From the IMG/VR virus record IMGVR_UViG_3300001687_001192: a DNA stretch of 64,000 nucleotides. The stretch is one strand, 5' to 3'. The DNA comes from a virus (taxonomy: Duplodnaviria; Heunggongvirae; Uroviricota; Caudoviricetes). The notes under the pieces are model-generated. The model was given only the letters and a program-made list of their open reading frames with translations, searched no databases and had not been told where the DNA came from. Positions 12,393-59,049 of this stretch are shown here, piece after piece (within the stretch, counting starts at the first letter, position 1; each line of letters starts with the position of its first letter). The translations under genes and the position numbers were made by a program.

Positions 12393-12923
12393 ATGCCAGT
12401 ACAACTGTTTGCGGAAGGATACGCCAAAATGAAGGCTAACCGGCCTATACCATGGCTTGGTATGCCCGTGTGTTACGGCGGTATTTGGATGTTAGTTTCG
12501 TGTGCTTCCAGTTACAAACCTAAACTAGCCTCGACCGGCATGGGCATTACACTTAGCTCATATAGGTCTAGGTCTAATACTAATGCATTTAAGCTTCCTG
12601 GTGAGCCAGATGCTCCGCCGATGAGTGCATCATTTATTAGCAGAGTTTCTTTGGCCTATGCATGGGCTGATAAACGAGTCAGACGTGATGGTGACCTGTG
12701 GGTTGAAGTTCCACTATGTTCAATGCATGAGGCCCTCATCCTTCCGCACGGTTGGGAAATGCGTGATCTCTTTCCGAACAATGGGGAAGTTAAGTTAGCA
12801 CCCTGTGACCTCAAGATGCTGAACACAGATGGGCGTGTTAGTTGTGCTAAGTGCAGTAAGTTACTTGTGCCGTTATGGATAGGTAACACTAATCTTAGCT
12901 ACTGCTCAAAGTGTGAGCCATAA
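12393..12923 (+). CDS. family-A paralog 1: N-term NRPIPWLGMPVCY, middle LPGEPDAPPM, C-terminal zinc ribbon LNTDGRVSCAKCS...WIGNTNLSYCSKCEP
   Basis: ACCGAGGAGACGTCA-ATG after tRNA-like element; 5 tandem paralogs. Confidence 0.65.
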   Translation: MPVQLFAEGYAKMKANRPIPWLGMPVCYGGIWMLVSCASSYKPKLASTGMGITLSSYRSRSNTNAFKLPGEPDAPPMSASFISRVSLAYAWADKRVRRDGDLWVEVPLCSMHEALILPHGWEMRDLFPNNGEVKLAPCDLKMLNTDGRVSCAKCSKLLVPLWIGNTNLSYCSKCEP

Positions 12924-12933
12924 GGAGTAAATA

Positions 12934-13473
12934 ATGAAACCTGGTGAGTTGTTTACCGAGAGGTACAAAAAGCTACAAATGAACTTACCAATACCGTGGA
13001 TTGGTATGCCAGTTTGGTACAAACCTGGCAGATTTTGGTTAGTGGTCAATGGGGTTAACTGTGGCTATGCCGAGTGTGACGGAATCAGCCTCGTGTCATA
13101 TCTTGGCACATGTGCAAGGAATTCTTTCCTTGTTCCGGGCCAACCGGATACTCCTGAGATGCCCACAGATGTTATCGATAGAATAGATGCTGGATATTAC
13201 TGGGGTATCGGGGCCAAGTTGGTTAACGGAGTGTGGCAACGCGTAGAGTTGCTTCCGACTCGTGAAAACGAGATGCACACAGTTTTGATTTTACCACTTG
13301 GCGAGTCTATAGAAACTGTGTTTCCCAACAACGCGCCACTAGCGACCGAAGAGAAGAACTTAAAACAGCTCAACACAGACGGTCGGACCAGTTGCGCCTC
13401 CTGCGGCGGTCCATTAACGTCTTTGTGGATAGGTAACACTAATCTTAGCCATTGTCCGAAATGTGAGCCGTAA
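12934..13473 (+). CDS. family-A paralog 2
   Basis: TAAGGAGTAAATA-ATG; conserved N and C modules. Confidence 0.7.
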   Translation: MKPGELFTERYKKLQMNLPIPWIGMPVWYKPGRFWLVVNGVNCGYAECDGISLVSYLGTCARNSFLVPGQPDTPEMPTDVIDRIDAGYYWGIGAKLVNGVWQRVELLPTRENEMHTVLILPLGESIETVFPNNAPLATEEKNLKQLNTDGRTSCASCGGPLTSLWIGNTNLSHCPKCEP

Positions 13474-13483
13474 GGAGCTAACA

Positions 13484-14038
13484 ATGGAACCGGGCGAGCT
13501 GATACTAATTGAATTTTACCTTAACATGACGGTTAACAGACCTATACCGTGGGTCGGAATGCCGGTGTGCTTTGAAAAGAGGAAGTGGTTTTTAGTAGAG
13601 GGCCAGGTGAGAATTAGCGGCGGCCACAGTTACGCTTGCTTTAACGGCGGTCAGAATATCCTTTCTTCATATATAAACCATGATAAGCGTATGGATAGGT
13701 TTTCTCTACCAGGAGAGCCAGAAGCGCCGCCGATGGTCGAGTTCACGGATATCTATGCTGATGCCTACGAATGGGGAAAAGCTGTCAAGTGTGTGAATGG
13801 TATCTGGGTTTCAACGGAGATACCCAATAGGTGCGATGCTCATACTGCACTTATACTTCCAGCTGGAGTTAGCTTCGCAAAAGCTTTGCCAAATAACGGA
13901 GCCAAGCCTACGATCTCACAGGATTTGAAGAAACTCAACACAGACGGACGATCTACTTGTGCCAGATGTGGAAAGGTTCTTGCGCCGCTGTGGATTGGTA
14001 ACACCAATCTAAGTTACTGTCAAGCTTGTGAAGGCTGA
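13484..14038 (+). CDS. family-A paralog 3
   Basis: TAAGGAGCTAACA-ATG inside track ORF 13463..14038. Confidence 0.7.
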   Translation: MEPGELILIEFYLNMTVNRPIPWVGMPVCFEKRKWFLVEGQVRISGGHSYACFNGGQNILSSYINHDKRMDRFSLPGEPEAPPMVEFTDIYADAYEWGKAVKCVNGIWVSTEIPNRCDAHTALILPAGVSFAKALPNNGAKPTISQDLKKLNTDGRSTCARCGKVLAPLWIGNTNLSYCQACEG

Positions 14039-14304
14039 TGTGATATAAAGCCTGCCGATTGCGAAGTCGTAACCGGGTTATTGCCTGACGGTCGTCAGGT
14101 GATAGTCTAGGTAGGCGAATAGGCGGCAGGTATTGTCGGCCAGACAATTCCCTTAAGCTGGTGCCGGATGGCATCGGATTGGGAAGACCTGAGAGAATAT
14201 GCAGCCTAGCCAGGAAACTGGAGGGCGAATTAAAGGCTTAGGTGAAGGGCCGGCAAAAGAGGCGGCGAAAGCGCAGCTTCCATGTCCCGGATTTGCTGCG
14301 GGAC

Positions 14305-14512
14305 ACATGGATGGGGAATTGCCGTGACGAAAGACTAGGAGAGAAGAGAGGGCGATTCTGTGGAGATGCGGAGACAAGGAAATGCGTAAGCATCGGGGCT
14401 ACCTCCACAATCATGGATGGGGAGTCGTTTGAACGAAAGACTAGGAGAGAAGCGAGGACGACTCTGCGGGGATGCGGAGACAAGGAGATGCGTAAGCATT
14501 GGGGCTTCCCCC
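14305..14512 (+). repeat. tandem duplication (about 103 bp x2, roughly 85% identical) of a leader segment; each copy carries GGAGACAAGGA(A/G)-ATGCGTAAGCAT; first copy encodes a 16-aa uORF (14382..14432), second is in frame with the downstream gene
   Basis: direct comparison of 14305-14407 vs 14408-14512. Confidence 0.6.
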
Positions 14513-14532
14513 GCACTATTTTAGGAGGTAAG

Positions 14533-14922
14533 ATGGGCCGAAAACCTATACATTTTGCCGTGGAAAACGTAAAATACTACCATGCTGGGAGATGGTGGCG
14601 AAGATTTTCTGAGTGCGGCGGCCTAATAAGGGCTGTCGGTGTGTATCCGGATCCTAGGTGGCGTCTTACAGACGACGTCTCGTTGGTCACGTGCAGGTTA
14701 TGTATAGCGCGACTCGTGGAACGAGGTGCTCTGGGTACCGATAATAACGAGACATCTAGGTTGCGCTCGGCTTCCTTCAAGCGTAGGGTAGTGGGCCAAG
14801 GCAAAGAGCAACTGATTATAACGACGGTTCCTAGGAATCCCGATGAACTGGCTGTTTTAGAAGATTTAATACTCAGTTATGTCGGTGGCTATGTTCTGCC
14901 GTCGGCTAGTGAGGAAGAATAA
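14533..14922 (+). CDS. hypothetical protein, family with 1..324 / 8324..8791 (LVTCRLC ... LIITTVPRNPDEL ... LILSYVGGYVLP); possible alternative start at 14488
   Basis: TTTTAGGAGGTAAG-ATG; track ORF 14242..14922 extends through the duplicated leader. Confidence 0.55.
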   Translation: MGRKPIHFAVENVKYYHAGRWWRRFSECGGLIRAVGVYPDPRWRLTDDVSLVTCRLCIARLVERGALGTDNNETSRLRSASFKRRVVGQGKEQLIITTVPRNPDELAVLEDLILSYVGGYVLPSASEEE

Positions 14923-14961
14923 TCCGTGTAGTTAGTTTTAGTTAAGTGGAGTAAGATCATA

Positions 14962-15525
14962 ATGTTACTTAATGACTTCTACAAGATGATGATATTTAAT
15001 CGTCCTGTGCCATGGATTGGAATGCCTGTATGGTATCTTGGCAGTGGCGGCGAATGGGGCTTCGTGATGGAGGTTCGCGGGGATGGAGCTGCTGGTTCTA
15101 CACACGGCTTGCGACTTCATACTTATAGGGAGGAATCTCCAGACTGGCCGGTTGGAAGACATGGATATGGGAGCGAAAATACTAAGGAGTTCATCTTACC
15201 TGGGGAGAAGGATGCCCCACCGATGGGCAACGATTTTCTAGATGAGCTTGAGACCGCGTATTGTTGGGGCGATAGTTACAAATACGTTGACGGCTTGTGG
15301 CAGAGATGGAAGCGTCCTATCAGGTTTCAGAGACATATGACTTTGATTATTCCATACGGCGAAGATCAGGGCATTGTGTTTCCCAACAATTCGACGACTA
15401 ACGTACAGGGTCTCAAGGAACTCAACACAGATGGTCGGACTGAGTGTGCTCAGTGTGGCGGGTCACTTGCGTCGTTGTGGATAGGTAACACTAATCTTAG
15501 CCATTGTCCGAAATGTGAGCCATAA
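14962..15525 (+). CDS. family-A paralog 4
   Basis: conserved NRPVPWIGMPVWY / LPGEKDAPPM / LNTDGRTECAQCG...WIGNTNLSHCPKCEP. Confidence 0.7.
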   Translation: MLLNDFYKMMIFNRPVPWIGMPVWYLGSGGEWGFVMEVRGDGAAGSTHGLRLHTYREESPDWPVGRHGYGSENTKEFILPGEKDAPPMGNDFLDELETAYCWGDSYKYVDGLWQRWKRPIRFQRHMTLIIPYGEDQGIVFPNNSTTNVQGLKELNTDGRTECAQCGGSLASLWIGNTNLSHCPKCEP

Positions 15526-15535
15526 GGAGCTAATA

Positions 15536-15736
15536 ATGAAACCGGGCGAGCTTGTAAAGGGATACATAAAAATGATGAGGGTCAATCGTCCCATACCGTG
15601 GATCGGAATGCACATCCTCAATCTTTACCGGCATCTTTTCAAGTCTCTCGATGTGCATTGCCTTGTCGTTGAGGACCGGATCTATCGCGATGCCATGTTG
15701 CGAGCCTTTAGAACTCACCGGACACGATCCGGTTGA
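15536..15736 (+). pseudogene. family-A paralog 5, truncated: conserved N-terminus MKPGELVKGYIKMMRVNRPIPWIGM, then divergent and terminates early
   Basis: TAAGGAGCTAATA-ATG; loses LPGEP and zinc-ribbon modules. Confidence 0.45.
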
Positions 15737-15870
15737 AGAGTATGAAGATCTCGGATGCTTATCGCCTAAGCGTACCGTGAAAATATACGACATCACGGAT
15801 GTGAACAGACTCACAAACGAACTCATGGGGATTGCAAGCTCCGTGAGATAAACAACGGAACGGGTGACAA

Positions 15871-25828: not shown

Positions 25829-26236
25829 GTGCTTCTTCGTGCCAGTGGTGTACGCAATCATAATAACACGAAAACCTTTAGAGGGACCGACGGTCCGGCT
25901 ATCGAATGGGCCGATGGTACTAAGCTTTGGTACCAGAATGGTAGGCGTCACAGGACCGACGGTCCGGCTGTTGAATGGACCAGTGGTAATAGAGAGTGGT
26001 ACCAGAATGATAAGTTTCACAGGACCGACGGTCCGGCTATCGAGTACGCCAATAGTGATAGGCTTTGGTACCAGAATGGTAAGCTGCACAGGACCGACGG
26101 TCCGGCTGTTGAAATGGCCAGTGGTACTAAAGAGTACTGGGTAGAGGGAAAGCGGGTAGAATCTCTTCCTGATAATTGTGCTGGGAAGATTGTAGAGATT
26201 GACGGGAAGAGATATAAGTTATTAGAGCTTCTTTAG
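25829..26236 (+). CDS. MORN-variant (MORN_2-like) repeat protein: four 23-aa repeats HRTDGPA(I/V)E(W/Y)xxGxxxWYQNGK(L/F)
   Basis: repeat motif recognisable; GTG start weak; overlapping alternative frame 25788..26144 has ATG and TM helix. Confidence 0.45.
   Translation: MLLRASGVRNHNNTKTFRGTDGPAIEWADGTKLWYQNGRRHRTDGPAVEWTSGNREWYQNDKFHRTDGPAIEYANSDRLWYQNGKLHRTDGPAVEMASGTKEYWVEGKRVESLPDNCAGKIVEIDGKRYKLLELL
25884..26159 (+). repeat. 69-bp DNA tandem repeat x4 (anchor GGACCGACGGTCCGGCT, itself a near-palindrome)
   Basis: copies start 25884, 25953, 26022, 26091. Confidence 0.8.
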
Positions 26237-29502: not shown

Positions 29503-29928
29503 GTGAAAAGGAGGCAAGCTATGGCTGATTGTCCGGGATGTGGTTCTGGAATGTGGGAAACCACAATTCAGGGTAACGCACAAATATACTATATTTGTCA
29601 TAAATGTAACAGTCCTTTTCCTAGGGGTAGCATCGTTCGTGAAAAGGGCGGAGGCGGGGAGGCTACAGTAATTGGCTACGGCTACGGCAGAGACTATGGG
29701 CCTGGTCCTTGTCATTGGGTGGTCGTAGAGTGGTGTGATGGTACACCGGGGCAAGGAGTCAATCCGAGCGTTTTTGAGCTAGTAGAGAATACTACTGACC
29801 GGAGAAATGAATCTCAGCGAGCTGGCGATGCGTTGTTTTGCCAATGTCAAAACAAAGATTTAGTTGAGAACTTTGCCCTCGACAAAAAATTCTATGTATG
29901 CAGGAAATGTAGGAGAGAAGCAAGTTAA
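29503..29928 (+). CDS. hypothetical protein with C-terminal zinc ribbon (CQCQNKDL...YVCRKCRREAS)
   Basis: GAAAAGGAGGCAAGCT-ATG. Confidence 0.6.
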   Translation: MKRRQAMADCPGCGSGMWETTIQGNAQIYYICHKCNSPFPRGSIVREKGGGGEATVIGYGYGRDYGPGPCHWVVVEWCDGTPGQGVNPSVFELVENTTDRRNESQRAGDALFCQCQNKDLVENFALDKKFYVCRKCRREAS

Positions 29929-32813: not shown

Positions 32814-33374
32814 ATGATCGCAGATTTCGACATGCTTGAATGGCATGAGACTTCGCAGCTGGTTGATGAGGAGACGGCGGAGGCCGTTAAGCACCTTCAC
32901 GTTGCTAGCTATATGTTTCGGCTAACTGGTAGTAGATACTTTGGGTCGTGGCAACGCCGATCAGACTTCGACTTTTTTACTGAGAATACTGCTTCCATCA
33001 ACTCATATCTCAAGTCAAAAGGTTTTGTAATAGTACTTTCAGGCGACTATACCGATGCTCTCACGGACCTGGTATACAGAAAGGGGAAGGTCCATGTGCA
33101 GATCATTAACAATGTTCTGTTAAAGCAAAGGATTCAAAAAGCTATCAATGACAGCGGCGTTATCGGAACGATAATGAGAGGTAGTGTAAAAGAGATAACG
33201 CGAAAATTATGGGATCTTGGGGTAAAACTGGCGGATCCTATAGATGTCGCGAAACCGCAGGTTACCGTAGAGTCGAAATTTTGTTCGTGTCCTGGAGAGA
33301 AGGTTCGGACGACGGTAAACGGCAGGGATTTTTTCAACTATTGCAGAGGGTGCAAGAAAGAGTGCAAACCGTAG
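32814..33374 (+). CDS. hypothetical protein with C-terminal zinc ribbon (CSCPGEKV...FFNYCRGCKKECKP)
   Basis: CGAAGGAGTCTAGAG-ATG inside track ORF 32778..33374. Confidence 0.6.
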   Translation: MIADFDMLEWHETSQLVDEETAEAVKHLHVASYMFRLTGSRYFGSWQRRSDFDFFTENTASINSYLKSKGFVIVLSGDYTDALTDLVYRKGKVHVQIINNVLLKQRIQKAINDSGVIGTIMRGSVKEITRKLWDLGVKLADPIDVAKPQVTVESKFCSCPGEKVRTTVNGRDFFNYCRGCKKECKP

Positions 33375-36799: not shown

Positions 36800-36806
36800 G
36801 TTGCAC

Positions 36807-37292
36807 ATGGCATCTTTGAGCGATGTACTTTCACTTGCAAGGAAGGTTAGGAACGCGTTCGAAGAGATTGGTGAAAACAAAAGACTGGGCGGATTCTGTG
36901 CGCGGGCTTCTATACAATTACATTTAGCAGCTGAGCGAATGGGTATAAGAGGAGTAGATATATGTATAGGGCAAGGTCATGTCTATTGCATGTACAATGA
37001 CACAGTGATAGACGTTACCGCTACACAATTTGGTATAGAGGACGAGGTGTTTACGTCAAAGATACTAGACCTGAAAGAGACTGTTAATAAAGATGGCGTC
37101 CGAAGACACTCTAGCTGGGAACAATTAAATAGGTTCCATGATCTTGCAGATGGGTATAAGGTTGCCAAGCGTATAGGCAGTTGGGCGAACTGGTGGGTCT
37201 GTGACAAACAAACAATTGCAGACGACATGCACTATGTGCTTAAGCATACAGGTGAGCTGATTACTGACAGCATTGACGAGGCTACAGTGTAG
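36807..37292 (+). CDS. paralog pair member 1 (VRNAFEEIG ... GVDICIGQGHVYCMYNDTVIDVTATQFG)
   Basis: tandem paralog of 37309..37728. Confidence 0.55.
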   Translation: MASLSDVLSLARKVRNAFEEIGENKRLGGFCARASIQLHLAAERMGIRGVDICIGQGHVYCMYNDTVIDVTATQFGIEDEVFTSKILDLKETVNKDGVRRHSSWEQLNRFHDLADGYKVAKRIGSWANWWVCDKQTIADDMHYVLKHTGELITDSIDEATV

Positions 37293-37308
37293 TCATACGG
37301 TTAGCGAC

Positions 37309-37728
37309 ATGGTTCCATACGATCTTATTAAACTGGCAGAAAAAGTAAGAGCAGCATTTGAGGAGATAGGCTCCTGTAATTGCGACCTCGCAGGGTGGTG
37401 TGGTACAGCCTCATCTCACCTTGCCGAGGCTGCTAAAAGGTTGGGAATTCACGGCGTGGATATCTGCGTCGGCAGTGGCCACGTCTATTGTATGTATTCT
37501 GATAATATTATAGATATTACTGCTACGCAATTTGGAGTGCAAGATAAGGTTTTTATAGTGTCGTTGTTTGATTTGAAGGAAGAGCTTGCCAAGCGCCAAT
37601 TAGACAATTGGTTTTACTGGAAACAGACTTCTAGGAACATCGCACCGTATCCATTAAAATCAGAGCATCTGCAAGTAGTGCAGAGGCATACTGGTGAGCT
37701 TGCTGAGCAAAAGGAGGCAACAGTATAA
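37309..37728 (+). CDS. paralog pair member 2 (VRAAFEEIG ... GVDICVGSGHVYCMYSDNIIDITATQFG)
   Basis: in-frame ATG aligned with paralog 1 start. Confidence 0.55.
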   Translation: MVPYDLIKLAEKVRAAFEEIGSCNCDLAGWCGTASSHLAEAAKRLGIHGVDICVGSGHVYCMYSDNIIDITATQFGVQDKVFIVSLFDLKEELAKRQLDNWFYWKQTSRNIAPYPLKSEHLQVVQRHTGELAEQKEATV

Positions 37729-37760: not shown

Positions 37761-37814
37761 GCGTCCGTAGCTCATGGGGAGCAGTTGTATTGGGTTCGAT
37801 TCCCTACGGATGCG
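37761..37814 (+). ncRNA. tRNA-like element, 54 nt: acceptor gcgtccg/cggatgc, D arm gctc-atggg-gagc, T arm TTCGATT; anticodon arm absent
   Basis: T-loop consensus; followed by GCTAGGAGGTTGTA-ATG. Confidence 0.5.
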
Positions 37815-37827
37815 CTAGGAGGTTGTA

Positions 37828-40756: not shown

Positions 40757-41085
40757 TGGATAACGAAAAGGTGCTTGTTGTGGCCGTAAAGTATGCGCCG
40801 CAAAAAATTATAAAAGCAAAGCCTTTCAGAGAGGGCGATCTTCAGGAGCCGTGTATTGGCAAGAGTTACTTTTGCTGCGGCTTGATCACTAGCGCGGTAG
40901 ATAGTTTCTCACCTCTAGAAGAAGGAGGCTGGCTTGTTAAGACCATGAACAGCACATATAAGTTTCTTAGGTGCACAGTTGAAGAGGTTGAAGGACTGGT
41001 AAAGGAATTAGGACTTGTAGGTCCATTGCAATATAATCCTCCGTCCCTGTCATTTTATTGGAAAGAAAAGGAACAGACCAACTAA
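40756..41085 (+). CDS. hypothetical protein
   Basis: TAATGG overlap. Confidence 0.5.
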   Translation: MDNEKVLVVAVKYAPQKIIKAKPFREGDLQEPCIGKSYFCCGLITSAVDSFSPLEEGGWLVKTMNSTYKFLRCTVEEVEGLVKELGLVGPLQYNPPSLSFYWKEKEQTN

Positions 41086-41645
41086 TGAGTGATTTATTTT
41101 TCTCTACGAGACCCAAGCCGTTTGCGGGGATGTTAATATATGGTTCGCGTTCGCTGAGGGGTCGTAGTGTATGGTGGCGGCTTGCCGAGCCAGATCAGAA
41201 CCCCAGGTGGGTTAATACAGCTTGGATGTTAATAGATACAGAAGGCGTCATTACGACACAGTATGTCGAGACAGCTGTGTCTAAGTCTGAAGTGTCAGCC
41301 CAATACCGTCTGCCGGGAGAACCTGGGTGTCCGCCAATTCCAGATTTCCTGCAGCATACATATAAAGATGGAGACCTGTATTACTTTTTCAGCGATATGA
41401 CTAAAAAGTGGCAGAATACTGCTCCTCTCTTTACCATGGATCCCATAACTGGAGCGTTTGTTTTTGACTCGCGAGAGACATACGTACCAGACTTCTCAGC
41501 TAGGGCGCTATATCGACCTCCGAACGGCGTTCAGGTTGTTGAGTCTGGCGTTTATTGTACGTGTTCCACACCAAACCTAGCTGTCACGGGCATCGGTCCT
41601 TTGGTAATTCGTTCCTGCAGAAATTGTAAACTTGAGGTGAGATAA
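41085..41645 (+). CDS. distant family-A-like protein (RLPGEPGCPPIPDF; C-terminal CTCSTPNLAVTGIGPLVIRSCRNCKLEV zinc ribbon)
   Basis: TAATG overlap; shares LPGEP and C-terminal zinc-ribbon motifs. Confidence 0.55.
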   Translation: MSDLFFSTRPKPFAGMLIYGSRSLRGRSVWWRLAEPDQNPRWVNTAWMLIDTEGVITTQYVETAVSKSEVSAQYRLPGEPGCPPIPDFLQHTYKDGDLYYFFSDMTKKWQNTAPLFTMDPITGAFVFDSRETYVPDFSARALYRPPNGVQVVESGVYCTCSTPNLAVTGIGPLVIRSCRNCKLEVR

Positions 41646-41649
41646 TCGT

Positions 41650-43005
41650 ATGGATATAAATGCTATAGACATACCTAGTCAAGTTTTAGAAGTGTGCCGT
41701 CGCCTCAGAGATGTCGGATACGAAAGTTATTTGGTAGGTGGCGCTTTAAGGGATCATATAGTTGGTCGCGTACCTAAAGACTACGACGTAGCTACAAACG
41801 CTCTACCTGATAAAGTCACAACATTATTTAAGAAAGTGGTCCCTACTGGGTTACAGTTTGGGACAGTGTCTGTACATTTGGGCGGCATGGAAATAGAAGT
41901 AACCACATATAGATCAGATGGTCGGTACTTAGATGGTAGAAGGCCGTCCGAAGTTTCGTTCGCAAATTCGGTCGAGGAAGATTTGGCTCGCCGGGATTTC
42001 ACAATAAATGCGCTAGCCTTCGACCCGATCGGAGAATCGAGAGTTATCGACCCATTCGGCGGAGAGTCAGATATATATAGCAAACGCATCAGGGCGGTAG
42101 GAGATCCGGCCGCAAGATTCGCCGAAGACGGCTTGCGGGCGATGAGAGCTGTTCGGTTCGCTGCACAGTTAGGCTTTACCATAGAGGCTCCCACATTCAA
42201 GGCTATTAAGCGCTCGTATGACGTGTTTGAGAAAATAAGTATGGAGCGTATCAGGGACGAGCTGATCAAGGTACTTGAGTCAGAGCATCGCACTTATGGA
42301 GTCGAGTTACTCGTGTCATCTGGACTAATGGCCCATATCATACCGGCCATTTCACGGATGCAGGGATGCGTTCAGAACAGATACCATAATAAGGATGTGT
42401 ACGGCCATTCTCTGGCTACTCTCCTTGGAGTAGTACAAAAAGATTACATCCTAAGACTGGCCGGGCTGTTACATGACATTGGAAAACCTGATACATCTGT
42501 ACTGGACAGGGATCGGAATGGTGCATTTAAGTTCCCAGAACACGAACGAGTCGGAGCTTTATATGTCGAGGCTATATCTAAGCGGCTTAAATTCTCTAGA
42601 GAAGATGTTATAAGGCTTACACACTTAGTGCGCTATCATATGAGACTAGCGGCACCGCCAAAGTCTGACGCTGGGCTGAGGAAAATGATTAGGAAATTGG
42701 GGCGTGAGCATATTGATGACTTTATAGCACTTAGAAGGGCAGATCTATTCGACTCGCCTAATAAAGATCACTTACTTTTTGATTTGGATGGCGTATCGCA
42801 GCGGATTGATAGGATATTAGCTGAGAAACATCCATTGGAAATGAGAGACCTTGCCGTGTCTGGGAATGACATAATGGAGCATTTGGGCATTGAATCTGGC
42901 CCGCGCGTCGGGCAAGTTTTGTCATTTCTAATGAATAAGGTACTTGAGCAACCGTTACTAAACGAAAAGGAAAAATTATTGGAGCTTGCAAATGAGTACA
43001 GGTAA
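41650..43005 (+). CDS. cca: CCA-adding tRNA nucleotidyltransferase with HD domain
   Basis: GGALRD...DYD head-domain motifs, RRDFTINA, HD motif HDIGK; 451 aa. Confidence 0.85.
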   Translation: MDINAIDIPSQVLEVCRRLRDVGYESYLVGGALRDHIVGRVPKDYDVATNALPDKVTTLFKKVVPTGLQFGTVSVHLGGMEIEVTTYRSDGRYLDGRRPSEVSFANSVEEDLARRDFTINALAFDPIGESRVIDPFGGESDIYSKRIRAVGDPAARFAEDGLRAMRAVRFAAQLGFTIEAPTFKAIKRSYDVFEKISMERIRDELIKVLESEHRTYGVELLVSSGLMAHIIPAISRMQGCVQNRYHNKDVYGHSLATLLGVVQKDYILRLAGLLHDIGKPDTSVLDRDRNGAFKFPEHERVGALYVEAISKRLKFSREDVIRLTHLVRYHMRLAAPPKSDAGLRKMIRKLGREHIDDFIALRRADLFDSPNKDHLLFDLDGVSQRIDRILAEKHPLEMRDLAVSGNDIMEHLGIESGPRVGQVLSFLMNKVLEQPLLNEKEKLLELANEYR

Positions 43006-46246: not shown

Positions 46247-46564
46247 ATGGCTATGCTGAGGATGAATGGACTCGCAACGATTATCGGGTCCAAAGAGTTG
46301 CCACATGAGGTAAAACAGCAAATCATGTCGGCCAGTGAAGGTAAAGCGAAAGCTATCCGCGTCGTCTTGAAAGATCATGAAGGCAACGAGATAGTTCTGA
46401 GAGGGAAACTGGAGCTATCCAGTAAAGGTTCTCTGATGGCTCGCTTTGCTAACGTTATCAAATCTTTTAAACTGGTGGAGGTCGATAGGCCGCAAGCCAA
46501 GGACAAGGAGGCCGAGGCAAAGGAGAGGGCGAAAACCCTCGCCAGAGAACTGACGAATCTCTAA
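46247..46564 (+). CDS. paralog E-1 (GKLELSSKGSLMARF ... FKLVEVD)
   Basis: AAAGGAGAGTTATC-ATG; conserved leader shared with 46691. Confidence 0.6.
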   Translation: MAMLRMNGLATIIGSKELPHEVKQQIMSASEGKAKAIRVVLKDHEGNEIVLRGKLELSSKGSLMARFANVIKSFKLVEVDRPQAKDKEAEAKERAKTLARELTNL

Positions 46565-46690: not shown

Positions 46691-46999
46691 ATGGCTAGAT
46701 TGCAGGTTACTGGGTTTGTCACGATCGCGAAGAGTTCTGAGCTGAGTGACGAGGACAAGGCGAAGGTGCTCAAGGCTGCCGAAGGCAAGGTGAAAGCTGT
46801 CCGTGCGGTACTGGTGGACGCCGAGGGCAACGAAGTAGTGATTAGCGGCAAGCTGCAGCTGAGCAGCAAGGGGTCTCTGACCGCTCGCTTTGGCGCCAAG
46901 ATCGAGTCTTTCGAGCTGGTCGAGGTAGACGCCGAAAAGAGCAAGTCTGCTCCCAAGGCTGACAACCTTGCCAAGGAACTGCTAGGTCTCACCGACTAG
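46691..46999 (+). CDS. paralog E-2 (GKLQLSSKGSLTARF ... FELVEVD)
   Basis: AAAGGAGGACATC-ATG; conserved leader. Confidence 0.6.
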   Translation: MARLQVTGFVTIAKSSELSDEDKAKVLKAAEGKVKAVRAVLVDAEGNEVVISGKLQLSSKGSLTARFGAKIESFELVEVDAEKSKSAPKADNLAKELLGLTD

Positions 47000-47083
47000 T
47001 AATCCTTAATCCCACCAAGCAGTTACGCCTGGCCCTGGGGCGTGTCAAATACCAGGGCAACCGTCCCACCAAAAGGAGCTGCT

Positions 47084-47650
47084 ATGCATATCAATCATCT
47101 CTGGACTGAGAGCCGCCCCAATAATATCTCCACGCATATGATAGAAGTAGACGGACTTCCAACCATTGTTGAAGCTAGAGGGCTTGCCCTGCGACTGATA
47201 TCGGAGCTTAATCGGCGAGAGGAGAAAATAGGAGTCGCGGAATCCTGTACTGGTGGTTTAATCGGAAGCCTTATAACCGACATCCCCGGCAGCTCGTCGG
47301 TCTTTGAGATTGGTGTTGTTAGTTACTCGAATGATGCCAAGCATCGCTTACTCGGAGTGTCACGGCATATTCTAACTACTCGCGGCGCGGTCAGCGGCGA
47401 GTGCGTTCTATCGATGGCTAACGGAGTGCGGTTGTTATCTAAAGCTGAATATGGCGTCGCCGTCTCCGGGATAGCAGGACCTGGGGGAGCCACTGAGCAC
47501 AAGCCAGTTGGCACTGTGTTCTTTGGGTTTTCTAGTGTAGATACAAATGTATACACAGAGATCAAGTTCCGTTTAGAAAGGATCGATACCAAATTGGCGT
47601 CCGCGTGTGTGGCGCTATCACTGGCGTCGCATATGATTAAAGAAATATGA
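47084..47650 (+). CDS. CinA C-terminal domain / PncC-like NMN amidohydrolase
   Basis: AESCTGG ... TDIPGSS ... YSN ... GAVS ... SGIAGPGG motifs align with PncC; AAAAGGAGCTGCT-ATG. Confidence 0.7.
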   Translation: MHINHLWTESRPNNISTHMIEVDGLPTIVEARGLALRLISELNRREEKIGVAESCTGGLIGSLITDIPGSSSVFEIGVVSYSNDAKHRLLGVSRHILTTRGAVSGECVLSMANGVRLLSKAEYGVAVSGIAGPGGATEHKPVGTVFFGFSSVDTNVYTEIKFRLERIDTKLASACVALSLASHMIKEI

Positions 47651-51220: not shown

Positions 51221-51316
51221 GTACCCGTAGCTCAGTCTGGTCTAGAGCCACTTGATCTTGGGGTCTGGGATCGCGACCCTTCTCAAGATGCGCAGGTTCA
51301 AATCCTGCCGGGTACT
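51221..51316 (+). tRNA. atypical tRNA, 96 nt: canonical acceptor (gtacccg/cgggtac), U8A9, D arm gctc-agtctggtcta-gagc, T arm gcagg-TTCAAAT-cctgc; 43-nt central region with stem cttga/tcaag enclosing hairpin gggtc-tgggatcgc-gaccc; anticodon not assignable
   Basis: arm-by-arm fold; starts immediately after stop codon. Confidence 0.55.
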
Positions 51317-51340
51317 CTATTTATTTTTAAGGAGAGAAAC

Positions 51341-53063: not shown

Positions 53064-54172
53064 GTCTTCCCCCAGAAGTTTTATCTCAAAGGCCAATAGC
53101 GGTTCCAGGAAGTCCATTCTGGAATGTGTTTAAAAGATTTGGAAGAGATGAAATAATTGCAATGGCTGTCAATGTGCTTGGCACAGCCATAATGAGCCTG
53201 TTCTCGGCCAGTGCGGTGCTGCTAGCGGCCGTTGGCCCGGTGGTCGAAAAGATTGGATTTTTCCCGGCACATTTCGTCGAAGCATGGAAAATCTATAAGA
53301 CAACGTCCGAGATGCAACGGCGAAATCTTTTCCATTATATAAAGAGAGCGGCACGCGGCGGCACGGTCAGCCTAGTAGAAGACGTGCTCGTACATGATCC
53401 TGTATATATTGTCTTGATGTATTTGGGCTTAAATGCATACAGTGGGACACCGGCATGGGTTTTATCTGCTATAAGTTTTGTAATTGCCGTAGTCGTAGTA
53501 GCATTTATAGAGGTAGGCGTTACTGAGGGGCGCTATCTCTTTTTTAAGTGGAGAGCTGGCAGAGCTGGCTTTGAAGTAGAGAAGTACTTTGAATCCAGGT
53601 TCCTCGTCGACGTTACTGTTGACCCAGACCAAGCGATGAAACTCGTGTCGAAGGAGTTCGAGCTTAACACCACATATGAAATGGCGTATAGTGATACCTA
53701 CTTCGAAAGCAAGTTTCCTGAATACTCCGATAGGACGGTGAAGTTCAGGTTAAGGAAACGGACAAATGAGGCGGGCAATTTCGTACGTTCCGCACAGATT
53801 ATATATACTAGAGCTGGAGAAGTCTATCGAAATAAATTAGAACAGTCAAGATTTTTCCCAATTAGAAAGGAGAAGATCTATTTCGAGTTAGATTCGTTGC
53901 ATCCACCTGCCGAACTGGAAGGCACGGCAGGAGAGTTCCTCCGAAAATATATAAACGATTCTAAGCCGCAACCATTACACTTTACTAGGATTGTCGCATA
54001 TAATAAGGTGTTATTAGTATCTGCTGATAGAGTTAAAGGTTCTAGGGATTTCTATTTGTTAGAAGTTAAGGTGTATAAAGAAATCGAAACTTTGATAAAG
54101 GCCATGCGCTTTATTATGAGGAAACTTCCTGTATTACAGACTACGCATGGAAAACTGGAACTTACGACGTAA
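53060..54172 (+). CDS. membrane protein (N-terminal TM bundle, 370 aa)
   Basis: ATGA overlap. Confidence 0.65.
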   Translation: MSLPPEVLSQRPIAVPGSPFWNVFKRFGRDEIIAMAVNVLGTAIMSLFSASAVLLAAVGPVVEKIGFFPAHFVEAWKIYKTTSEMQRRNLFHYIKRAARGGTVSLVEDVLVHDPVYIVLMYLGLNAYSGTPAWVLSAISFVIAVVVVAFIEVGVTEGRYLFFKWRAGRAGFEVEKYFESRFLVDVTVDPDQAMKLVSKEFELNTTYEMAYSDTYFESKFPEYSDRTVKFRLRKRTNEAGNFVRSAQIIYTRAGEVYRNKLEQSRFFPIRKEKIYFELDSLHPPAELEGTAGEFLRKYINDSKPQPLHFTRIVAYNKVLLVSADRVKGSRDFYLLEVKVYKEIETLIKAMRFIMRKLPVLQTTHGKLELTT

Positions 54173-54189
54173 GAAAAAGGAGAAACAGA

Positions 54190-54375
54190 ATGTTTCTAGA
54201 GATCGAGGTTGATACTCGAACTGGTATCGAGAAAGGACAAAAGGAAGTAGATGGAGACCACATTATTGAAAAGCACCCTAACGTTCTTGATCTAATGTCT
54301 TGGGTCAAAGGAGCGCGTGTTGGGTCTGTATTTTCTATTATAAGTCGCGGGTATAAATATAAGAAGGTGTCGTGA
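54190..54375 (+). CDS. small protein
   Basis: AAAAGGAGAAACAGA-ATG. Confidence 0.4.
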   Translation: MFLEIEVDTRTGIEKGQKEVDGDHIIEKHPNVLDLMSWVKGARVGSVFSIISRGYKYKKVS

Positions 54376-54656
54376 TGAATCGGGCACACAAAGCCAAAGC
54401 TTTGCTGCTTTATAATGCAGAACGTATAGAAATGTTGGCCGAAGCCGCCCACATGATCGGCTTCGAAGATCTAGGTGACCGGCTTTTTAATATATCAAAT
54501 GGTATCAAAGATAGCACAAACGCGTTGTTCCGTGCATGGAAGAAGGAGTTCTTCGATCATTGCGATTCTATAAAGGAGGCGGGCGAGAATATACTGGCAG
54601 CGACCTTAGCGGGATTAGAACTAGCAGAAAAGTCAACGACGGAGGACCAAGAGTGA
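54372..54656 (+). CDS. hypothetical protein
   Basis: GTGATG overlap. Confidence 0.5.
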   Translation: MMNRAHKAKALLLYNAERIEMLAEAAHMIGFEDLGDRLFNISNGIKDSTNALFRAWKKEFFDHCDSIKEAGENILAATLAGLELAEKSTTEDQE

Positions 54657-55210
54657 AAGACGGCGACAAGAAGAAGTTGTCTAAGTTTATGAGTCTTGTG
54701 TTGCGACATAAACTAGGAAGTTTAAAATTAGACTCTAGGGGATGTTGCAAAATAGACGATTTAATAAATGTCGTTAATAGAAGAACTAGGCTAAACGTTA
54801 CCCGCGCCGACGTGATTAAACTTACAATTCCGTCCGAAGATCCAAATATTAAAACTAGATTTGAACTGGAAGGAAATTTTATACGAGCTGGACATGGGCA
54901 TTCGATTAAAATAGAAGGGTACGAGAAATTGATTCCGAGTCAACCGCTTTACCATGCTACTACGGAGTCTGTCATAGATTCTATCATGCGATCGGGTTTG
55001 TGTGCTATGAACAGACAAAAGGTACACTTGTCATATGATAAAGCTATTACTATCGAGGCTGCTAAAAGACGTAGCAGAAACATAGTGCTTATACGAATTA
55101 AAAGCGAGGAGGCTGTGTCTGGCGGAGTATCTTTCTATAAAAGTGCAGATGAAAGGATCGTGTTGTCTGATGACATTCCGCCGGAATATTTGGAGGTCGA
55201 GGCATTATGA
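54653..55210 (+). CDS. Tpt1/KptA family RNA 2'-phosphotransferase (NAD-dependent), GTG start
   Basis: SKFMSLVLRH, IRAGHGHS, LYHATT, VHLS motifs; GACGGAGGACCAAGA-GTG overlapping upstream TGA. Confidence 0.7.
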   Translation: MKDGDKKKLSKFMSLVLRHKLGSLKLDSRGCCKIDDLINVVNRRTRLNVTRADVIKLTIPSEDPNIKTRFELEGNFIRAGHGHSIKIEGYEKLIPSQPLYHATTESVIDSIMRSGLCAMNRQKVHLSYDKAITIEAAKRRSRNIVLIRIKSEEAVSGGVSFYKSADERIVLSDDIPPEYLEVEAL

Positions 55211-56265
55211 GATGTTTACTTGTGACTGGTAAATTTGATACCTATGGTGGCAGACCATCGAAGATAGGCCAGATTGTTGCGGAGTCAATCGTCACTTACA
55301 ACAAAGCTTTCAGAGAAGTAAGGCATATAAACGGTGGTAGAATAGAGTTAATACCGAGCTTGGTACGCGATTCCGGGCCCAACTACGACATTATATTCTG
55401 GTTTCCAGACGTGGCAGATCGAGGCTTTGGAATTAAATATGTAGATTTTATTAAAAACCACAACCAAAAGTGCGTCCTAGTAACCTCCAAGAACAATATT
55501 GATTGTAAATACAGTATCAGTAAAATGGTTCAAGGAGCGTTAAAGCAAAAAGCCAACTTGTTTGTAGAATTACAGAAACGCTCAGACAAATACATAGCCC
55601 GAGTACTAGATCCGCTAGGTAATCAATTTTCCGGCTGGAGCGACAACTTTTCCGAGGTCACAACGGCTTTGGTAGGTAGAGCTATAAGGATAAGTGATTT
55701 TACGAGGGTTCCAAGCTCTGCTGCGCATAAAATCGAGACGCCATACAGCGGAGAATTTATAAAGTTTGTTAGGAGTACGGCTGAGCGCATCGGCAGATTC
55801 TTTCAGCCATCTCTTACTCATAGGTTTGTCGGTAACGCGTCGTTTAAGAAAGACGACATGGTCTTTATTACTAGAAGGAATATCGATAAAGCTACTTTAC
55901 ACTGTTCAAATTTTGTAGGGATCTCTAACTTACAACCACGTGGATACAGTTTTCACGGACAGTTCAAACCTTCTGTTGACTCTCCAATTCATCTACGACT
56001 CTATGAAATATACCCTGAGATAAATTATATTGTACATGGTCATGCATATATAAATGGTTTTGTTACTACAGAAACGGTAGTTCCGTGTGGGTCACTGGAA
56101 GAGGCAGATTTAATACATAGCTGTTTTCCTGATAAAAGACGTACCAGTTTTGCTTTAAATCTAAAAGGACATGGATTTATTGCCTTAGCTAACGAAGTAG
56201 ACGCATTGCGCGATCTGACCTTTAACTTGGTTCCTAGACCATTGCCGGAAATGATTAATGAATGA
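55207..56265 (+). CDS. protein with C-terminal class II aldolase/adducin-like domain
   Basis: YIVHGH ... ALNLKGHGFIALANEVDAL resembles class II aldolase fold; N-terminal half unknown. Confidence 0.5.
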   Translation: MRCLLVTGKFDTYGGRPSKIGQIVAESIVTYNKAFREVRHINGGRIELIPSLVRDSGPNYDIIFWFPDVADRGFGIKYVDFIKNHNQKCVLVTSKNNIDCKYSISKMVQGALKQKANLFVELQKRSDKYIARVLDPLGNQFSGWSDNFSEVTTALVGRAIRISDFTRVPSSAAHKIETPYSGEFIKFVRSTAERIGRFFQPSLTHRFVGNASFKKDDMVFITRRNIDKATLHCSNFVGISNLQPRGYSFHGQFKPSVDSPIHLRLYEIYPEINYIVHGHAYINGFVTTETVVPCGSLEEADLIHSCFPDKRRTSFALNLKGHGFIALANEVDALRDLTFNLVPRPLPEMINE

Positions 56266-56687
56266 GAGTTATTAACAAAAGATTTAACGAATTTCCGACA
56301 CCCATAAGAAAAGCCATTAAGAGCTTGAGTCTCAGGAAAGAGGGTCATTCGAGCCTTGTATTCCAAAGTGAACCAGATATAGATACATTTATTGCTTTAA
56401 ACGAGGACGGTATCTTGATAGGATGGGCTATATGCAGTAGGAAATGGCTTGAACATCCCGTGGTCGTGAATAGAGTGGGCGTCAACATCGAAATGAAACG
56501 ACCTGTTATAATGCTTTACGTGCGTAAATCTATGAGAAGAAAGGGAGTTGGCTCCATACTAATGTCAGCTGTAATAGCTAAACATAGTAAGGTTGCTGTC
56601 TGTCCATGGAATTCGGAGTCGCGAGGATTTTTTAACAAACTTAAGAAAAACTATGCTGGTCTACCAAATGCTCCAGGATATTGGTGA
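56262..56687 (+). CDS. GNAT family acetyltransferase
   Basis: RRKGVGSILM acetyl-CoA binding motif. Confidence 0.55.
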   Translation: MRVINKRFNEFPTPIRKAIKSLSLRKEGHSSLVFQSEPDIDTFIALNEDGILIGWAICSRKWLEHPVVVNRVGVNIEMKRPVIMLYVRKSMRRKGVGSILMSAVIAKHSKVAVCPWNSESRGFFNKLKKNYAGLPNAPGYW

Positions 56688-56691
56688 TAAA

Positions 56692-57147
56692 ATGCCTCGA
56701 TATTTTAAACGTATAACAATACCAGAACTTAGAGAAGAAATTAAAGAATCAATAGTATATGAAGATGGTTTGCATGGTTATGCTTGGCCTTTAGATATCC
56801 CACAAGTAAAGAAAGACCTTAAAAAGTGTAAGTTTGATTTTGAGAACCATGAGGTATCTCCGGAGTTATGGACTCCTCAGAGATTGATGGGGTTAGTAAC
56901 ATTGAATAACGGCTTGACGTTTTGGGGACAGTCTGCTGGTGGAGACTGGGAGTTTCCAGTATTCTTTATTCTATATTGGGATGGCAAAAAAGTAAGAGGG
57001 TATATTCCTAATGAAGGTAATCATTGGAATAAAAAGACAAAAATGGCTTATGGAAATGGTGAAGATGAGATGATCATAGTAGACAAACTTAAGTTTGACG
57101 TTGACAAGCTTGAAGCAGATATAAGGGAACGAATCAAAGAGAGGTAA
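56692..57147 (+). CDS. hypothetical protein
   Basis: in-frame ATG in track ORF 56593..57147 just after upstream stop. Confidence 0.5.
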   Translation: MPRYFKRITIPELREEIKESIVYEDGLHGYAWPLDIPQVKKDLKKCKFDFENHEVSPELWTPQRLMGLVTLNNGLTFWGQSAGGDWEFPVFFILYWDGKKVRGYIPNEGNHWNKKTKMAYGNGEDEMIIVDKLKFDVDKLEADIRERIKER

Positions 57148-57150
57148 TGG

Positions 57151-58197
57151 ATGTTAAGGAAGCTAGCTTCAATTCAAGTAGTTGACAAACTAGAGTCTAT
57201 TTCTGGAGCCGATAGAATAGAGCTGGCTTCTATCATGGGCTGGAAAGTCATTGTAAAGAAAGGAGAATTCGCCGAGGGAGATAAATGCGTATTTTTTGAG
57301 ATAGATTCTATCCTGCCAGACGGTCAGCCTTGGGCAGAGTTCATGAGGCCACGAAAATTTAGGGTTAAAACCCTTAAGATGCGCGGCGTTCTATCTCAGG
57401 GGCTTGCCCTCCCACTGAGCATACTTGGAAAACCAGGCATGTTTAGGACGCTATTTTATAAGATAACTAAACTCAGTCCTTGGAAGGTTGGAGATGACGT
57501 AACCAAAACTCTTAAGATAAAGAAGCATGATCCCACCGTGAGAGGCCATGGTTTCGATTCTGGGAGCTTTTTAGCTCCATTTCCTCCTTTCATCCCGAAA
57601 ACGGACGAAATCCGCTTACAATCGGCTCTAGGGCTTCTGAGCGAATTGAAGGGACATCCGTTTTACATTTCGGTTAAATGTGATGGGACATCTGGTACAT
57701 TTTATAAGTTAAATAATGAATTATTCTGCTGTTCTAGGAATCGAATTGTCAAACCTGGTGACAACGTCTACTGGGAGATCGCACGTAAATATAATTTGGA
57801 AAAGAAACTTCCGGAAGGTATAGCTATTCAAGGAGAAATCTGTAGTCCTGGTATACAGAAAAACAGATTGTCTCTTAAAGAGCCGGAATTATTTGTATTT
57901 GACGTTTTACGGATTAAAGGGGTAGAATACTTTGATCTGCCACAAATGCAATTGTTCTGCCAGGAACACGGCTTAGAGACTGTACCAATCGAGCGTGTTG
58001 TAGCTAGTCCCGATAATTTCGACTATTCTCTTGAGAATTGGATTGACCTTGCAAAAGGCAAATATCCGAACGGAATTAATCGCAGGGAGGGAATTGTCGT
58101 AAGACCAGTCACCAAGGTACGTAGCCAAGTGTTACGCGGCGGCAGGGTAAGTTTTAAAGTCATTAACAACGACTATTTATTGAAAGACGAGGATTAA
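57151..58197 (+). CDS. ATP-dependent RNA ligase, DraRnl/Rnl5-like (N-terminal OB domain + nucleotidyltransferase KxDG)
   Basis: N-terminus MLRKLASIQVVDKLESISGADRIELASIMGWKVIVKKGEF; motif I ISVKCDGTSGTF. Confidence 0.65.
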   Translation: MLRKLASIQVVDKLESISGADRIELASIMGWKVIVKKGEFAEGDKCVFFEIDSILPDGQPWAEFMRPRKFRVKTLKMRGVLSQGLALPLSILGKPGMFRTLFYKITKLSPWKVGDDVTKTLKIKKHDPTVRGHGFDSGSFLAPFPPFIPKTDEIRLQSALGLLSELKGHPFYISVKCDGTSGTFYKLNNELFCCSRNRIVKPGDNVYWEIARKYNLEKKLPEGIAIQGEICSPGIQKNRLSLKEPELFVFDVLRIKGVEYFDLPQMQLFCQEHGLETVPIERVVASPDNFDYSLENWIDLAKGKYPNGINRREGIVVRPVTKVRSQVLRGGRVSFKVINNDYLLKDED

Positions 58198-58500
58198 ATG
58201 CTAGGCCGGCCTCTTTTATTTGTAGGCTTTATTGTCATGCTTATAACGGCTGTGTTCCTTATATGTATGACAATACATTATACTGAGGGATCTAATGCGA
58301 CACCGCAGACAGTAGGAAAGTGTTATAATGAGTGCGTGACTAAAGGTATAAAACGTCTTGAAGTCACTGCTTCCAACTGTGTCTCAAGGATCAACAAAAA
58401 ACAGAGGATTGATGCCCAATGCATGCGACGTGTATTTTCAGTAGTACATGATTCTTGTAACAGTCATTGTAAGAACGCGACGCGTGGTGTAGTATGGTAG
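58198..58500 (+). CDS. membrane-anchored Cys-rich protein
   Basis: TAAATG overlap. Confidence 0.5.
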   Translation: MLGRPLLFVGFIVMLITAVFLICMTIHYTEGSNATPQTVGKCYNECVTKGIKRLEVTASNCVSRINKKQRIDAQCMRRVFSVVHDSCNSHCKNATRGVVW

Positions 58501-58706
58501 TAGTATCTTTCTTTTGTGCTTGTTATATTATTCTCGCTTTAATCTTTACTTCCGTAATACAATTTTTGACTGCACATTTCGCACTTACCAGTACTAAGTT
58601 GAAGTGGAACTATAAGACTGCGTTTATATGGCCTATAACTGTACCAGTTTTTCTTATTCTTATAATATATTATGTTTATAGAAAAGAGACAAATCATGAT
58701 CCCTAA
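58494..58706 (+). CDS. membrane protein
   Basis: overlap. Confidence 0.45.
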   Translation: MVVVSFFCACYIILALIFTSVIQFLTAHFALTSTKLKWNYKTAFIWPITVPVFLILIIYYVYRKETNHDP

Positions 58707-59049
58707 AAGAGGTGATCTAGTAAGAATAAATCCAGAATACATTAAAGCAATACGGTTAATTGGAGATCCGAGTTGGCATGCATGTGAAAATGCTGAGGTT
58801 GAGATCATAGAAGTTATGAATTGGGGTGACAAATTTAAAGTAAGATGGCAGCACAAAGATGATACATATAGTGTTTTTCTTGGGAACGATGGAACCTTTT
58901 TCTATGGTAGAACTAATATCAAGTTTTTTACGTCATTAGTACACAATATACAATCGGATAAATGTATATGTAATTCTCCAGATATAACTATAACAGGTAT
59001 TGGTAGGTTGGCATTTCAAGTATGTAGAATATGTAAGAAAGAGATATGA
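58672..59049 (+). CDS. protein with C-terminal zinc ribbon of the shared type (CICNSPDITITGIGRLAFQVCRICKKEI)
   Basis: C-terminal module shared with family A/B proteins. Confidence 0.55.
   Translation: MFIEKRQIMIPKRGDLVRINPEYIKAIRLIGDPSWHACENAEVEIIEVMNWGDKFKVRWQHKDDTYSVFLGNDGTFFYGRTNIKFFTSLVHNIQSDKCICNSPDITITGIGRLAFQVCRICKKEI

Follow-up and report, generated by a model that had tools for sequence, protein, structure and literature searches.

A Predicted C-Terminal Zinc Ribbon on Proteins of Many Kinds in a Probable Huge Phage

Results

Genes with Four-Cysteine Tails

The window analyzed here is a stretch of 64,000 nucleotides from IMG/VR record IMGVR_UViG_3300001687_001192, a virus of the class Caudoviricetes; our subject is a short tail, containing four cysteines, with which eleven of its predicted proteins end. 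A reading made from the sequence alone (hereafter the sequence-only reading) had placed such tails at the stops at 12923, 13473, 14038, 15525, 19807, 20139, 20730, 29928, 33374, 41645, and 59049. All were confirmed, each protein having four cysteines within its last ~30 residues, and a six-frame scan for open reading frames (ORFs) ending in C-x(1-2)-C-x(12-22)-C-x2-C-x(0-8)-stop returned exactly these eleven, all on the plus strand; no ORF on the minus strand of the window has such a tail. The tails fall into two classes, designated A and B, and the genes are as follows, the interval between the outer cysteines being given as the tail core.

12315..12923, plus strand: family A paralog 1 (P0002), 202 residues; class-A tail CxxC-x16-CxxC-EP, core 12843-12914
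12934..13473, plus strand: family A paralog 2 (P0001), 179 residues; class-A tail core 13393-13464
13484..14038, plus strand: family A paralog 3 (P0003), 184 residues; class-A tail core 13958-14029
14962..15525, plus strand: family A paralog 4 (P0004), 187 residues; class-A tail core 15445-15516
15536..15619, plus strand: remnant of a fifth family-A copy, first ~28 codons recognizable (71% identical to P0010), no tail; the gene for a 690-residue protein is next
19460..19807, plus strand: class-B tail protein (P0019), 115 residues, SH3-like family B head; tail cysteine core 19712-19783
19804..20139, plus strand: class-B tail protein (P0016), 111 residues, family B head; tail core 20050-20121; AlphaFold model with beta-barrel head, linker, and beta-hairpin ribbon
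20143..20730, plus strand: class-B tail protein (P0018), 195 residues, family B head and an extra middle domain; tail core 20641-20712
29521..29928, plus strand: class-B tail protein (P0021), 135 residues, unique head with its own N-terminal CxxC...CxxC; tail core 29839-29910
32814..33374, plus strand: class-B tail protein (P0024), 186 residues, unique head; tail core 33282-33353, the most divergent of the seven tails
41058..41645, plus strand: class-B tail protein of the 'TGIG' subtype, start at 41058 (TTG) or 41085 (ATG); tail core 41556-41627
58696..59049, plus strand: class-B tail protein of the 'TGIG' subtype (P0017), 117 residues, unique head; tail core 58963-59034

The shared ending might be thought a matter of chance, or a generic CxxC motif without significance, since cysteine pairs are frequent in small phage proteins and CxxC pairs occur in other ORFs of the window too. 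Residue shuffling of the 199 plus-strand ORFs of at least 60 residues, however, gives an expectation of 0.002 for each exact pattern, against 7 and 4 observed; with none on the minus strand, the feature must be real and far beyond chance. A hidden Markov model (HMM) of the seven class-B tails, run over the six-frame translation of the window, scores those seven at 53-66 bits and the next best ORF at 10. Together with the 176 specific matches among 1.84 billion proteins described below, these values refute the chance explanation.

The sequence-only reading had written one consensus for all eleven tails. That consensus holds for the seven class-B proteins, which follow C-x-C-x17-C-x2-C-[KR]-[KRL]-E without a single insertion or deletion. 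It fails for the four tandem proteins between 12315 and 15525, the class-A paralogs, which have a pattern of their own (C-x2-C-x16-C-x2-C-E-[PG]) and their own conserved interior (LNTDGR..CA.C...L..LWIGNTNLS.C..CE).

The Class-B Tail in Other Sequences

A 34-position class-B profile was searched exhaustively with HMMER against 1.84 billion cluster representatives, and 176 proteins matched at E≤0.001, 7 of them at E≤1e-10. Among the best 150 of the 176 matches, 139 are real, 120 having the exact CxC-x17-CxxC pattern, and the tail lies no more than six residues from the C-terminus in 122 of the 150. The remaining 11 of these 150 are leucine-rich-repeat proteins (TIPDSVTSIGxxAFxxC) aligned to columns 12-28 only, and were rejected as false positives. 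The HMM check proposed in the sequence-only reading thus came out in its favor: the family is rare and specific rather than a ubiquitous zinc ribbon, and its alignment extends well beyond the cysteine spacing. Its members are metagenomic singletons or near-singletons, and no model in Pfam, PHROGs, NCBIfam, or PADLOC covers the tail; PADLOC likewise yielded no defense or anti-defense annotation.

Conservation was profiled over 120 class-B tails chosen by the exact cysteine pattern, for which reason the four cysteines (C1 to C4) stand at 100%. On the N-terminal side, Y or F precedes C1 in 91%, with P at C1+5 in 84%, N at C1+10 in 72%, and A at C1+12 in 67%; farther on come G at C1+14 (77%), F at C1+17 (90%), and R or K after C3 (79%), and C4 is followed by K (77%), K (88%), and then E (100%). 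The domain is about 32 residues long, [FY]-C-x-C-x2-P-x-[LVI]-[VI]-x-N-x-A-x-G-x2-F-x-[YVF]-C-R-x-C-K-K-E, usually with two residues more before the stop; 80 of 119 tails end exactly five residues past the last cysteine.

Every tail context examined appears phage-like or is an IMG/VR viral contig. One of them, 80.7 kb long, carries intein-containing terminase and portal genes; another encodes Prim-Pol, DUF3987, and DUF3799, and its tail gene adjoins Prim-Pol in what is a replication module; a third is syntenic with the window at 39-52 kb, P0050 being the ortholog of the 41058 protein; and a fourth, of 93 kb, encodes two or more tail proteins. With a degenerate DNA pattern for F-x-[YF]-C-R-x-C-K-K-E, which by our estimate captures about one-quarter of the class-B family, we found 12 IMG/VR contigs, among them one of 318 kb whose tail protein has a weakly methyltransferase-like head, and others with variants in which the first knuckle is CxxC. 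Across 185,579 species genomes of GTDB the pattern matched at 53 places, none of which contains the full domain, the best reaching 27 bits on the second knuckle only. Within the limits of the DNA pattern used, the class-B domain therefore appears to be restricted to viruses. A tblastn search of 50,697 GenBank phage records with the consensus tail, 20143, and 41085 found no match, and word-indexed protein searches with tail alignments returned nothing useful, the domain being too short for such an index. Nor were further copies found near the window, within 10 kb downstream or ~9 kb upstream.

A variant tail two residues longer, C.C....RKLV.N.AGGK.F..C.TCKKE[YF][KR], ends three tandem paralogs of 315-344 residues in a 110-kb viral contig also among the 12 recovered with the DNA pattern (UViG_3300010035_000001, L019 2904-5751); their heads have no Pfam match.

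Relationship of the Two Classes

All eleven tails could belong to one homologous family that diverged at the first knuckle (CxC versus CxxC), an idea that we entertain tentatively. The two classes align without gaps in an identical C1-C3-C4 register; class-B tails follow heads resembling family A in 41058, P0050, and P0044; IMG/VR variants combine a CxxC first knuckle with a CRSCKKE ending; and the class-A tail of Rhodobacteraceae phage LS06-2018-MD06 ends in CPKCEKE. Against this, class-A tails score only ~1 bit with the class-B HMM, and the hhalign score between the classes, 7.7, lies inside the range of shuffles with fixed cysteines (7.0-16.8). Isolated class-A tails, moreover, resemble Zn_ribbon_TFIIB (sub-threshold in 9 of 15, best E 6.8e-5) and DZR, whereas class-B tails do not, matching instead A2L_zn_ribbon in 5 of 106 (best E 0.0035). 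In the tables as listed, all matches to generic Pfam ribbons fall below the curated cut-off (DZR 18.6 bits versus 27.3; Zn_ribbon_TFIIB 16 versus 22), bit scores not being listed for the members with the two best E values just given. Homology between the classes is thus not demonstrated statistically, and class A may be a distant relative.

Among deposited phage records, only that of the phage just mentioned (44 kb) was found to carry a tail of either type. Its protein WBK39808.1 (L083 1063-1620) has a class-A tail on an unrelated head: the tail alone aligns, with 47% identity over 43 columns and an hhalign probability of 97.7%. Since the class-A tail recurs in this way on a different head, class A too is a reusable module. 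The gene lies directly upstream of that for a DnaB-like helicase, in an early/replication operon. A related-locus search with family A itself found no viral relative.

Heads and Modularity

The tails had been described as belonging to otherwise unrelated proteins, which overstates their diversity: the eleven include two paralog families and amount to five head types. The proteins at 12315, 12934, 13484, and 14962 are full-length paralogs with 40-45% identity, and the 28-codon remnant that follows them shows birth-and-death turnover in the tandem family-A array. An N-terminal head is common to 19460, 19804, and 20143. The 41058 protein aligns with family A over its full length (24% identity), has the motifs RPxPWxGM and LPGEPxxPP in common with it, and is recovered at E 4e-4 by an HMM of the family-A head (14 sequences). 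What survives of the description concerns 29521, 32814, and 58696, whose heads are unrelated by BLAST and hhalign. The 32814 head has a GS...DxD motif resembling that of nucleotidyltransferases, by eye only; searches of Protein Data Bank (PDB) sequences with this head and with family-A heads found nothing. A common SH3-like origin of all class-B heads was considered and has no support from hhalign.

Beyond the window the variety is far greater. With their tails removed, 128 heads, almost all from metagenomic proteins, fall into 78 BLAST components (E<1e-3). A Pfam and PHROG scan of 139 members gave stray matches only (one hexapeptide transferase and one weak M.Eco57I C-terminal domain), and no Fpg/Nei glycosylase or IleRS head appeared in its Pfam part. 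The domain is not always terminal, as two copies lie inside a 506-residue protein on contig L014. In all 11 homologous pairs compared, the tail is more similar than the head (e.g., 66% versus 33% identity). The module shuffling suggested by the sequence-only reading therefore receives support for the class-B tail, which behaves autonomously on different heads (of five types within the window, and of 78 or more groups overall); grouping the four family-A tails with these has no support.

A further check proposed there, whether the DNA encoding the tail is conserved beyond expectation, which would betray recombination, came out negative. Third-position identity between class-B tails is 0.21-0.50, with no excess over what the protein demands, and only one direct repeat links them, 24 nucleotides long and encoding YC.RCKKE. 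With third positions near random, recent recombination or gene conversion of tail DNA was rejected, and the lack of conservation beyond the needs of the protein implies that the associations of heads with tails are old.

Predicted Structure

We modeled P0016, the product of the 19804 gene, with AlphaFold2 from a 106-row alignment (mean predicted local distance difference test [pLDDT] 89; predicted template modeling score [pTM] 0.57). Residues 1-65 form a small beta-barrel (pLDDT ~95), which we consider SH3/KOW/Tudor-like on the strength of the model; residues 61-80 form a low-confidence linker (pLDDT 58-77); and residues 81-111 form a confident beta-hairpin ribbon, the tail hairpin reaching pLDDT 92-97. 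The predicted strands are 90-95 and 98-103 in P0016, and 20-25 and 28-33 in the isolated tail (pLDDT >90). The tail would accordingly have both features of a zinc ribbon, namely two knuckles with four cysteines (CxC...CxxC in 7 tails, CxxC...CxxC in 4) and, in the AlphaFold prediction, a beta-hairpin between them. We thus predict that the tail is a C4 zinc ribbon in which two cysteine knuckles flank a beta-hairpin, that it folds independently of the head, from which a flexible linker would separate it, and, by inference, that it binds zinc.

Foldseek gives weak matches of the tail to MutM/Fpg/Nei fingers. As a reference for hhalign we used the authentic C-terminal 29 residues of Escherichia coli Fpg and Nei, read from NC_000913, with 40 shuffles in which the cysteines were fixed. 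The class-A tail scores 23.5 against Fpg and Nei (probability 85%; best of 40 shuffles 22.6), and the class-B tail 19.9 (probability 73%; best of 40 shuffles 15.1). The resemblance in sequence seems real but modest, and because the shuffles also remove the strand and turn pattern generic to zinc ribbons, a specific relationship is unproven.

Source of the Window and Other Features

The four family-A proteins are recorded on ENA contig ERZ27279932:k141_1082626 (460,921 bp), where the window corresponds to about 387,986-451,985, reversed. Identical proteins are present in SRR6207735/6 and in IMG 3300001855, an assembly from sulfate-rich White Oak River estuary sediment (Baker et al. 2015; PMC4411801). 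All genes of the window run in one direction, the longer, plausibly coding ORFs lying on the plus strand only; GC skew remains positive from end to end, and five tRNA genes are called. Strong PHROG matches of window proteins are to phrog_33734 (3e-153), RNA ligase, and tRNA nucleotidyltransferase. The 690-residue protein has 46% identity with one from the Xanthomonas jumbo phage XacN1 (385 kb), on this single protein the nearest cultured relative. There is no capsid or terminase gene within the window, so that a probable huge phage as the source, although well supported, is inferred rather than demonstrated.

G+C content declines steadily across the window (1-64000), being ~0.50-0.54 over the first 18 kb and ~0.37-0.40 over the final 8 kb. 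Genes for RNA repair and tRNA maturation form a dense set that, at 41650-43005, 47042-47650, 54536-55210, 57151-58197, and 63061-63594, and at L002 10897-11892, comprises a CCA-adding enzyme, CinA, a Tpt1/KptA 2′-phosphotransferase, an RNA ligase, an HD_4 domain protein, and Thg1, the gene for the last lying just beyond the end of the window. A NADAR protein is encoded at 23259-23738. ARAGORN leaves the anticodon undetermined in two tRNAs (two-base 'aa' and 'tt' loops) and also reports a 97-nucleotide tRNA-Arg(TCT) with a possible intron; located at 7261-7331, 51221-51317, and 61987-62061, all three pass the Rfam tRNA model. Sequences resembling a T-arm and acceptor (GGGTTCGATTCCC...) also occur outside the five called tRNA genes, at 9159-9184, 18580-18605, 21764-21789, and 37792-37817, and may be missed, split, or degenerate tRNA genes.

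A stretch of ~600 bp without convincing ORFs (17946-18540) contains seven to eight degenerate copies of a ~32-nucleotide motif (TTGGGGCCATGATATCTCTTCCTTCTAAA), spaced 68-144 nucleotides apart and with longer sub-repeats nested among them; a tRNA-like 3′ end (GGGTTCGATTCCC...CCCA-CTA) follows the array at 18540-18605. ARAGORN and Rfam make no call in this repeat region (17946-18605), which could be a small RNA array, decayed tRNA genes, or regulatory repeats.

This part of the genome has evidently seen frequent gene duplication. Paralog pairs, tandem or dispersed, are clear by eye (36801-37292 and 37273-37728; 46247-46564 and 46691-46999; 8324-8791 and 14242-14922), and the ORF between family-A copies 3 and 4 contains a 104-nucleotide tandem DNA duplication (14306-14515). 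A protein with MORN-like repeats (TDGPA.EW..G.K.WYQNG..HR) is encoded at 25829-26236, its repeats corresponding to three DNA repeats spaced 69 nucleotides apart; a long ORF in another frame overlaps the gene.

Discussion

We propose that the class-B tail is a virus-restricted C4 ribbon, carried by many heads, that acts as a common anchoring module and would bring those heads to one kind of target, with nucleic acid the favored candidate; we put the probability of this reading at roughly 0.45. Its association with small heads of dozens of unrelated kinds would be ancient, and its spread in this phage may have come about through whole-gene duplication together with association with different heads. 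Since the residues K, K, E, and N are as conserved as those of the core, and since the tail is predicted not to pack on the head, it probably recognizes a target common to its carriers.

It is unlikely that the tail is only a stabilizer. We consider it improbable, in other words, that the ribbon, having no common target, serves as a zinc-stabilized structural cap for the folding of phage proteins that are very small and evolve fast. Many heads are indeed shorter than 100 residues, zinc ribbons are common stabilizing elements, and the aromatic residue before C1, the P, the F, and the aromatic residue before C3 are of the type that packs a ribbon core. The model of P0016, however, predicts a flexible linker with the tail unpacked on the head (linker pLDDT 58-77; pTM 0.57), the charged residues K, K, and E are as conserved as the core itself, and the heads that the tail would stabilize are less conserved than the tail.

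As to what is recognized, nucleic acid (DNA or RNA) would be the first candidate and a conserved protein the second. Five observations place nucleic acid first: (i) the end of the tail is basic, with a net charge of +3 lying entirely in C-R-x-C-K-K-E-[KR]; (ii) the tail resembles the Fpg and Nei fingers; (iii) the heads include an SH3/KOW/Tudor-like barrel and weak methyltransferase-like matches; (iv) two tail genes lie in replication modules, one adjoining the gene for a DnaB-like helicase and the other Prim-Pol; and (v) nucleic-acid binding is a general habit of zinc ribbons.

Several points weigh against this reading. A Zn(Cys)4 centre carries a charge of -2, which offsets much of the +3. 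The similarity to Fpg may be only the generic zinc-ribbon pattern, and the Pfam model zf-FPG_IleRS (PF06827) is not listed for 106 class-B and 15 class-A tails even at E≤10. Most heads are net acidic, which fits protein mimicry or docking equally well. When five genomic contexts were compared, tail-bearing proteins were the only family in common, and no conserved neighboring partner gene was found in the short flanks available. The contig sequence examined amounts to ~83 kb of 461 kb, the window and its flanks.

If the target were a protein, the tail would be a docking adaptor that plugs into a single conserved protein or complex of the host or the phage, RNA polymerase, the ribosome, the virion, and a chaperone or unfoldase being possible examples, and would parallel by analogy the 2-cysteine adaptor of giant viruses. 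The near-invariance of surface-type residues (N, K, K, E) across unrelated heads would suit such a role, as would the strict C-terminal position with its fixed two-residue overhang past the invariant glutamate, the acidity of the heads, and the flexible linker. We nonetheless find it somewhat doubtful, because no partner gene co-occurs with the tail in the five contexts and because the carriers range from 44-kb to 461-kb phages of different environments, so that the partner would have to be very widely conserved. A nearby AAA ATPase was considered as that partner and rejected for lack of support.

On a bolder reading, the tail might be a phage-specific 'address label', a new adaptor domain that takes small effector heads of dozens of unrelated kinds to a single conserved target in the cell, such as the nucleoid, the ribosome, or RNA polymerase, a possibility to which we would not commit ourselves. 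If it is true, the heads are a ready-made catalog of host-takeover effectors in uncultured phages, huge ones included. The target of the tail, once found, would suggest the site of action of all of the heads. Most genes of huge phages are unannotated, and a recognizable, apparently virus-restricted module on at least 78 head types offers a handle on such proteins; a Pfam-style model could label well over 100 protein clusters that currently have no annotation. WBK39808.1 of LS06-2018-MD06 is a possible experimental entry point.

Among known systems, the finger of Fpg/MutM/Nei, which in Fpg is C-terminal and binds DNA, comes closest in form. It is likewise a C4 beta-hairpin at the extreme C-terminus, the protein ending two to three residues past the last cysteine; its CxxC-x16-CxxC spacing is identical to that of the class-A tail, and its second knuckle, [FY]-[YW]-C-[RP]-x-C-[QK], resembles the F-x-Y-C-R-x-C-K of class B. 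Class B differs in its CxC first knuckle, its x17 spacing, and the KKE ending specific to the family. The CSL zinc finger of DPH3/KTI11 (PF05207), a redox or iron carrier of eukaryotes and archaea with CxC...CxxC ligands, has in common with the tail this rare ligand arrangement and an aromatic residue before the first cysteine, but its spacing is x19 and its ending C-S-L, compared with x17 and C-K-K-E, and no tail matches its HMM at E≤10.

The only PDB sequence match of the tail is to the plant homeodomain (PHD) finger of CFP1 (PDB 9c0o, E 0.0046), in two short pieces (YCxC and YYCRRCKKE). The cross-brace of a PHD finger requires eight ligands, and the match is therefore not ordinary homology: the tail has only four cysteines, and the middle of the PHD finger is absent from it.

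In concept the nearest parallel is the 2-cysteine adaptor (2C_adapt, PF08793), a small, virus-specific cysteine module of giant viruses of eukaryotes, which has two conserved cysteines, is fused to many catalytic or uncharacterized domains, and is thought to target them to a common partner. The idea of one small viral module on many heads is the same, but the tail has four cysteines, and 2C_adapt was never listed in HMM scans of the tails and members.

In scale the parallel is Bacillus phage G, another huge phage with many paralogous zinc-ribbon proteins, in which a ribbon occurs in about 35 copies (e.g., in gp32), and for these proteins a role as transcription factors or in structural DNA binding has been proposed (Iyer et al. 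2021; PMC7824862). The gp32 ribbon differs from ours in its pattern (CPxC-x16-CxxxC) and its place near the N-terminus, and it belongs to one family; a direct link to the phage G expansion was rejected, gp32 (YP_009015343.1) giving an hhalign probability of 0.4%. The zinc ribbon as a promiscuous module, expanded in a huge phage, is thus already known in kind. What is new is a domain family, perhaps two related ones, absent from current libraries, and with it, after phage G, a second huge phage in which zinc ribbons have proliferated, here with one tail on many heads.

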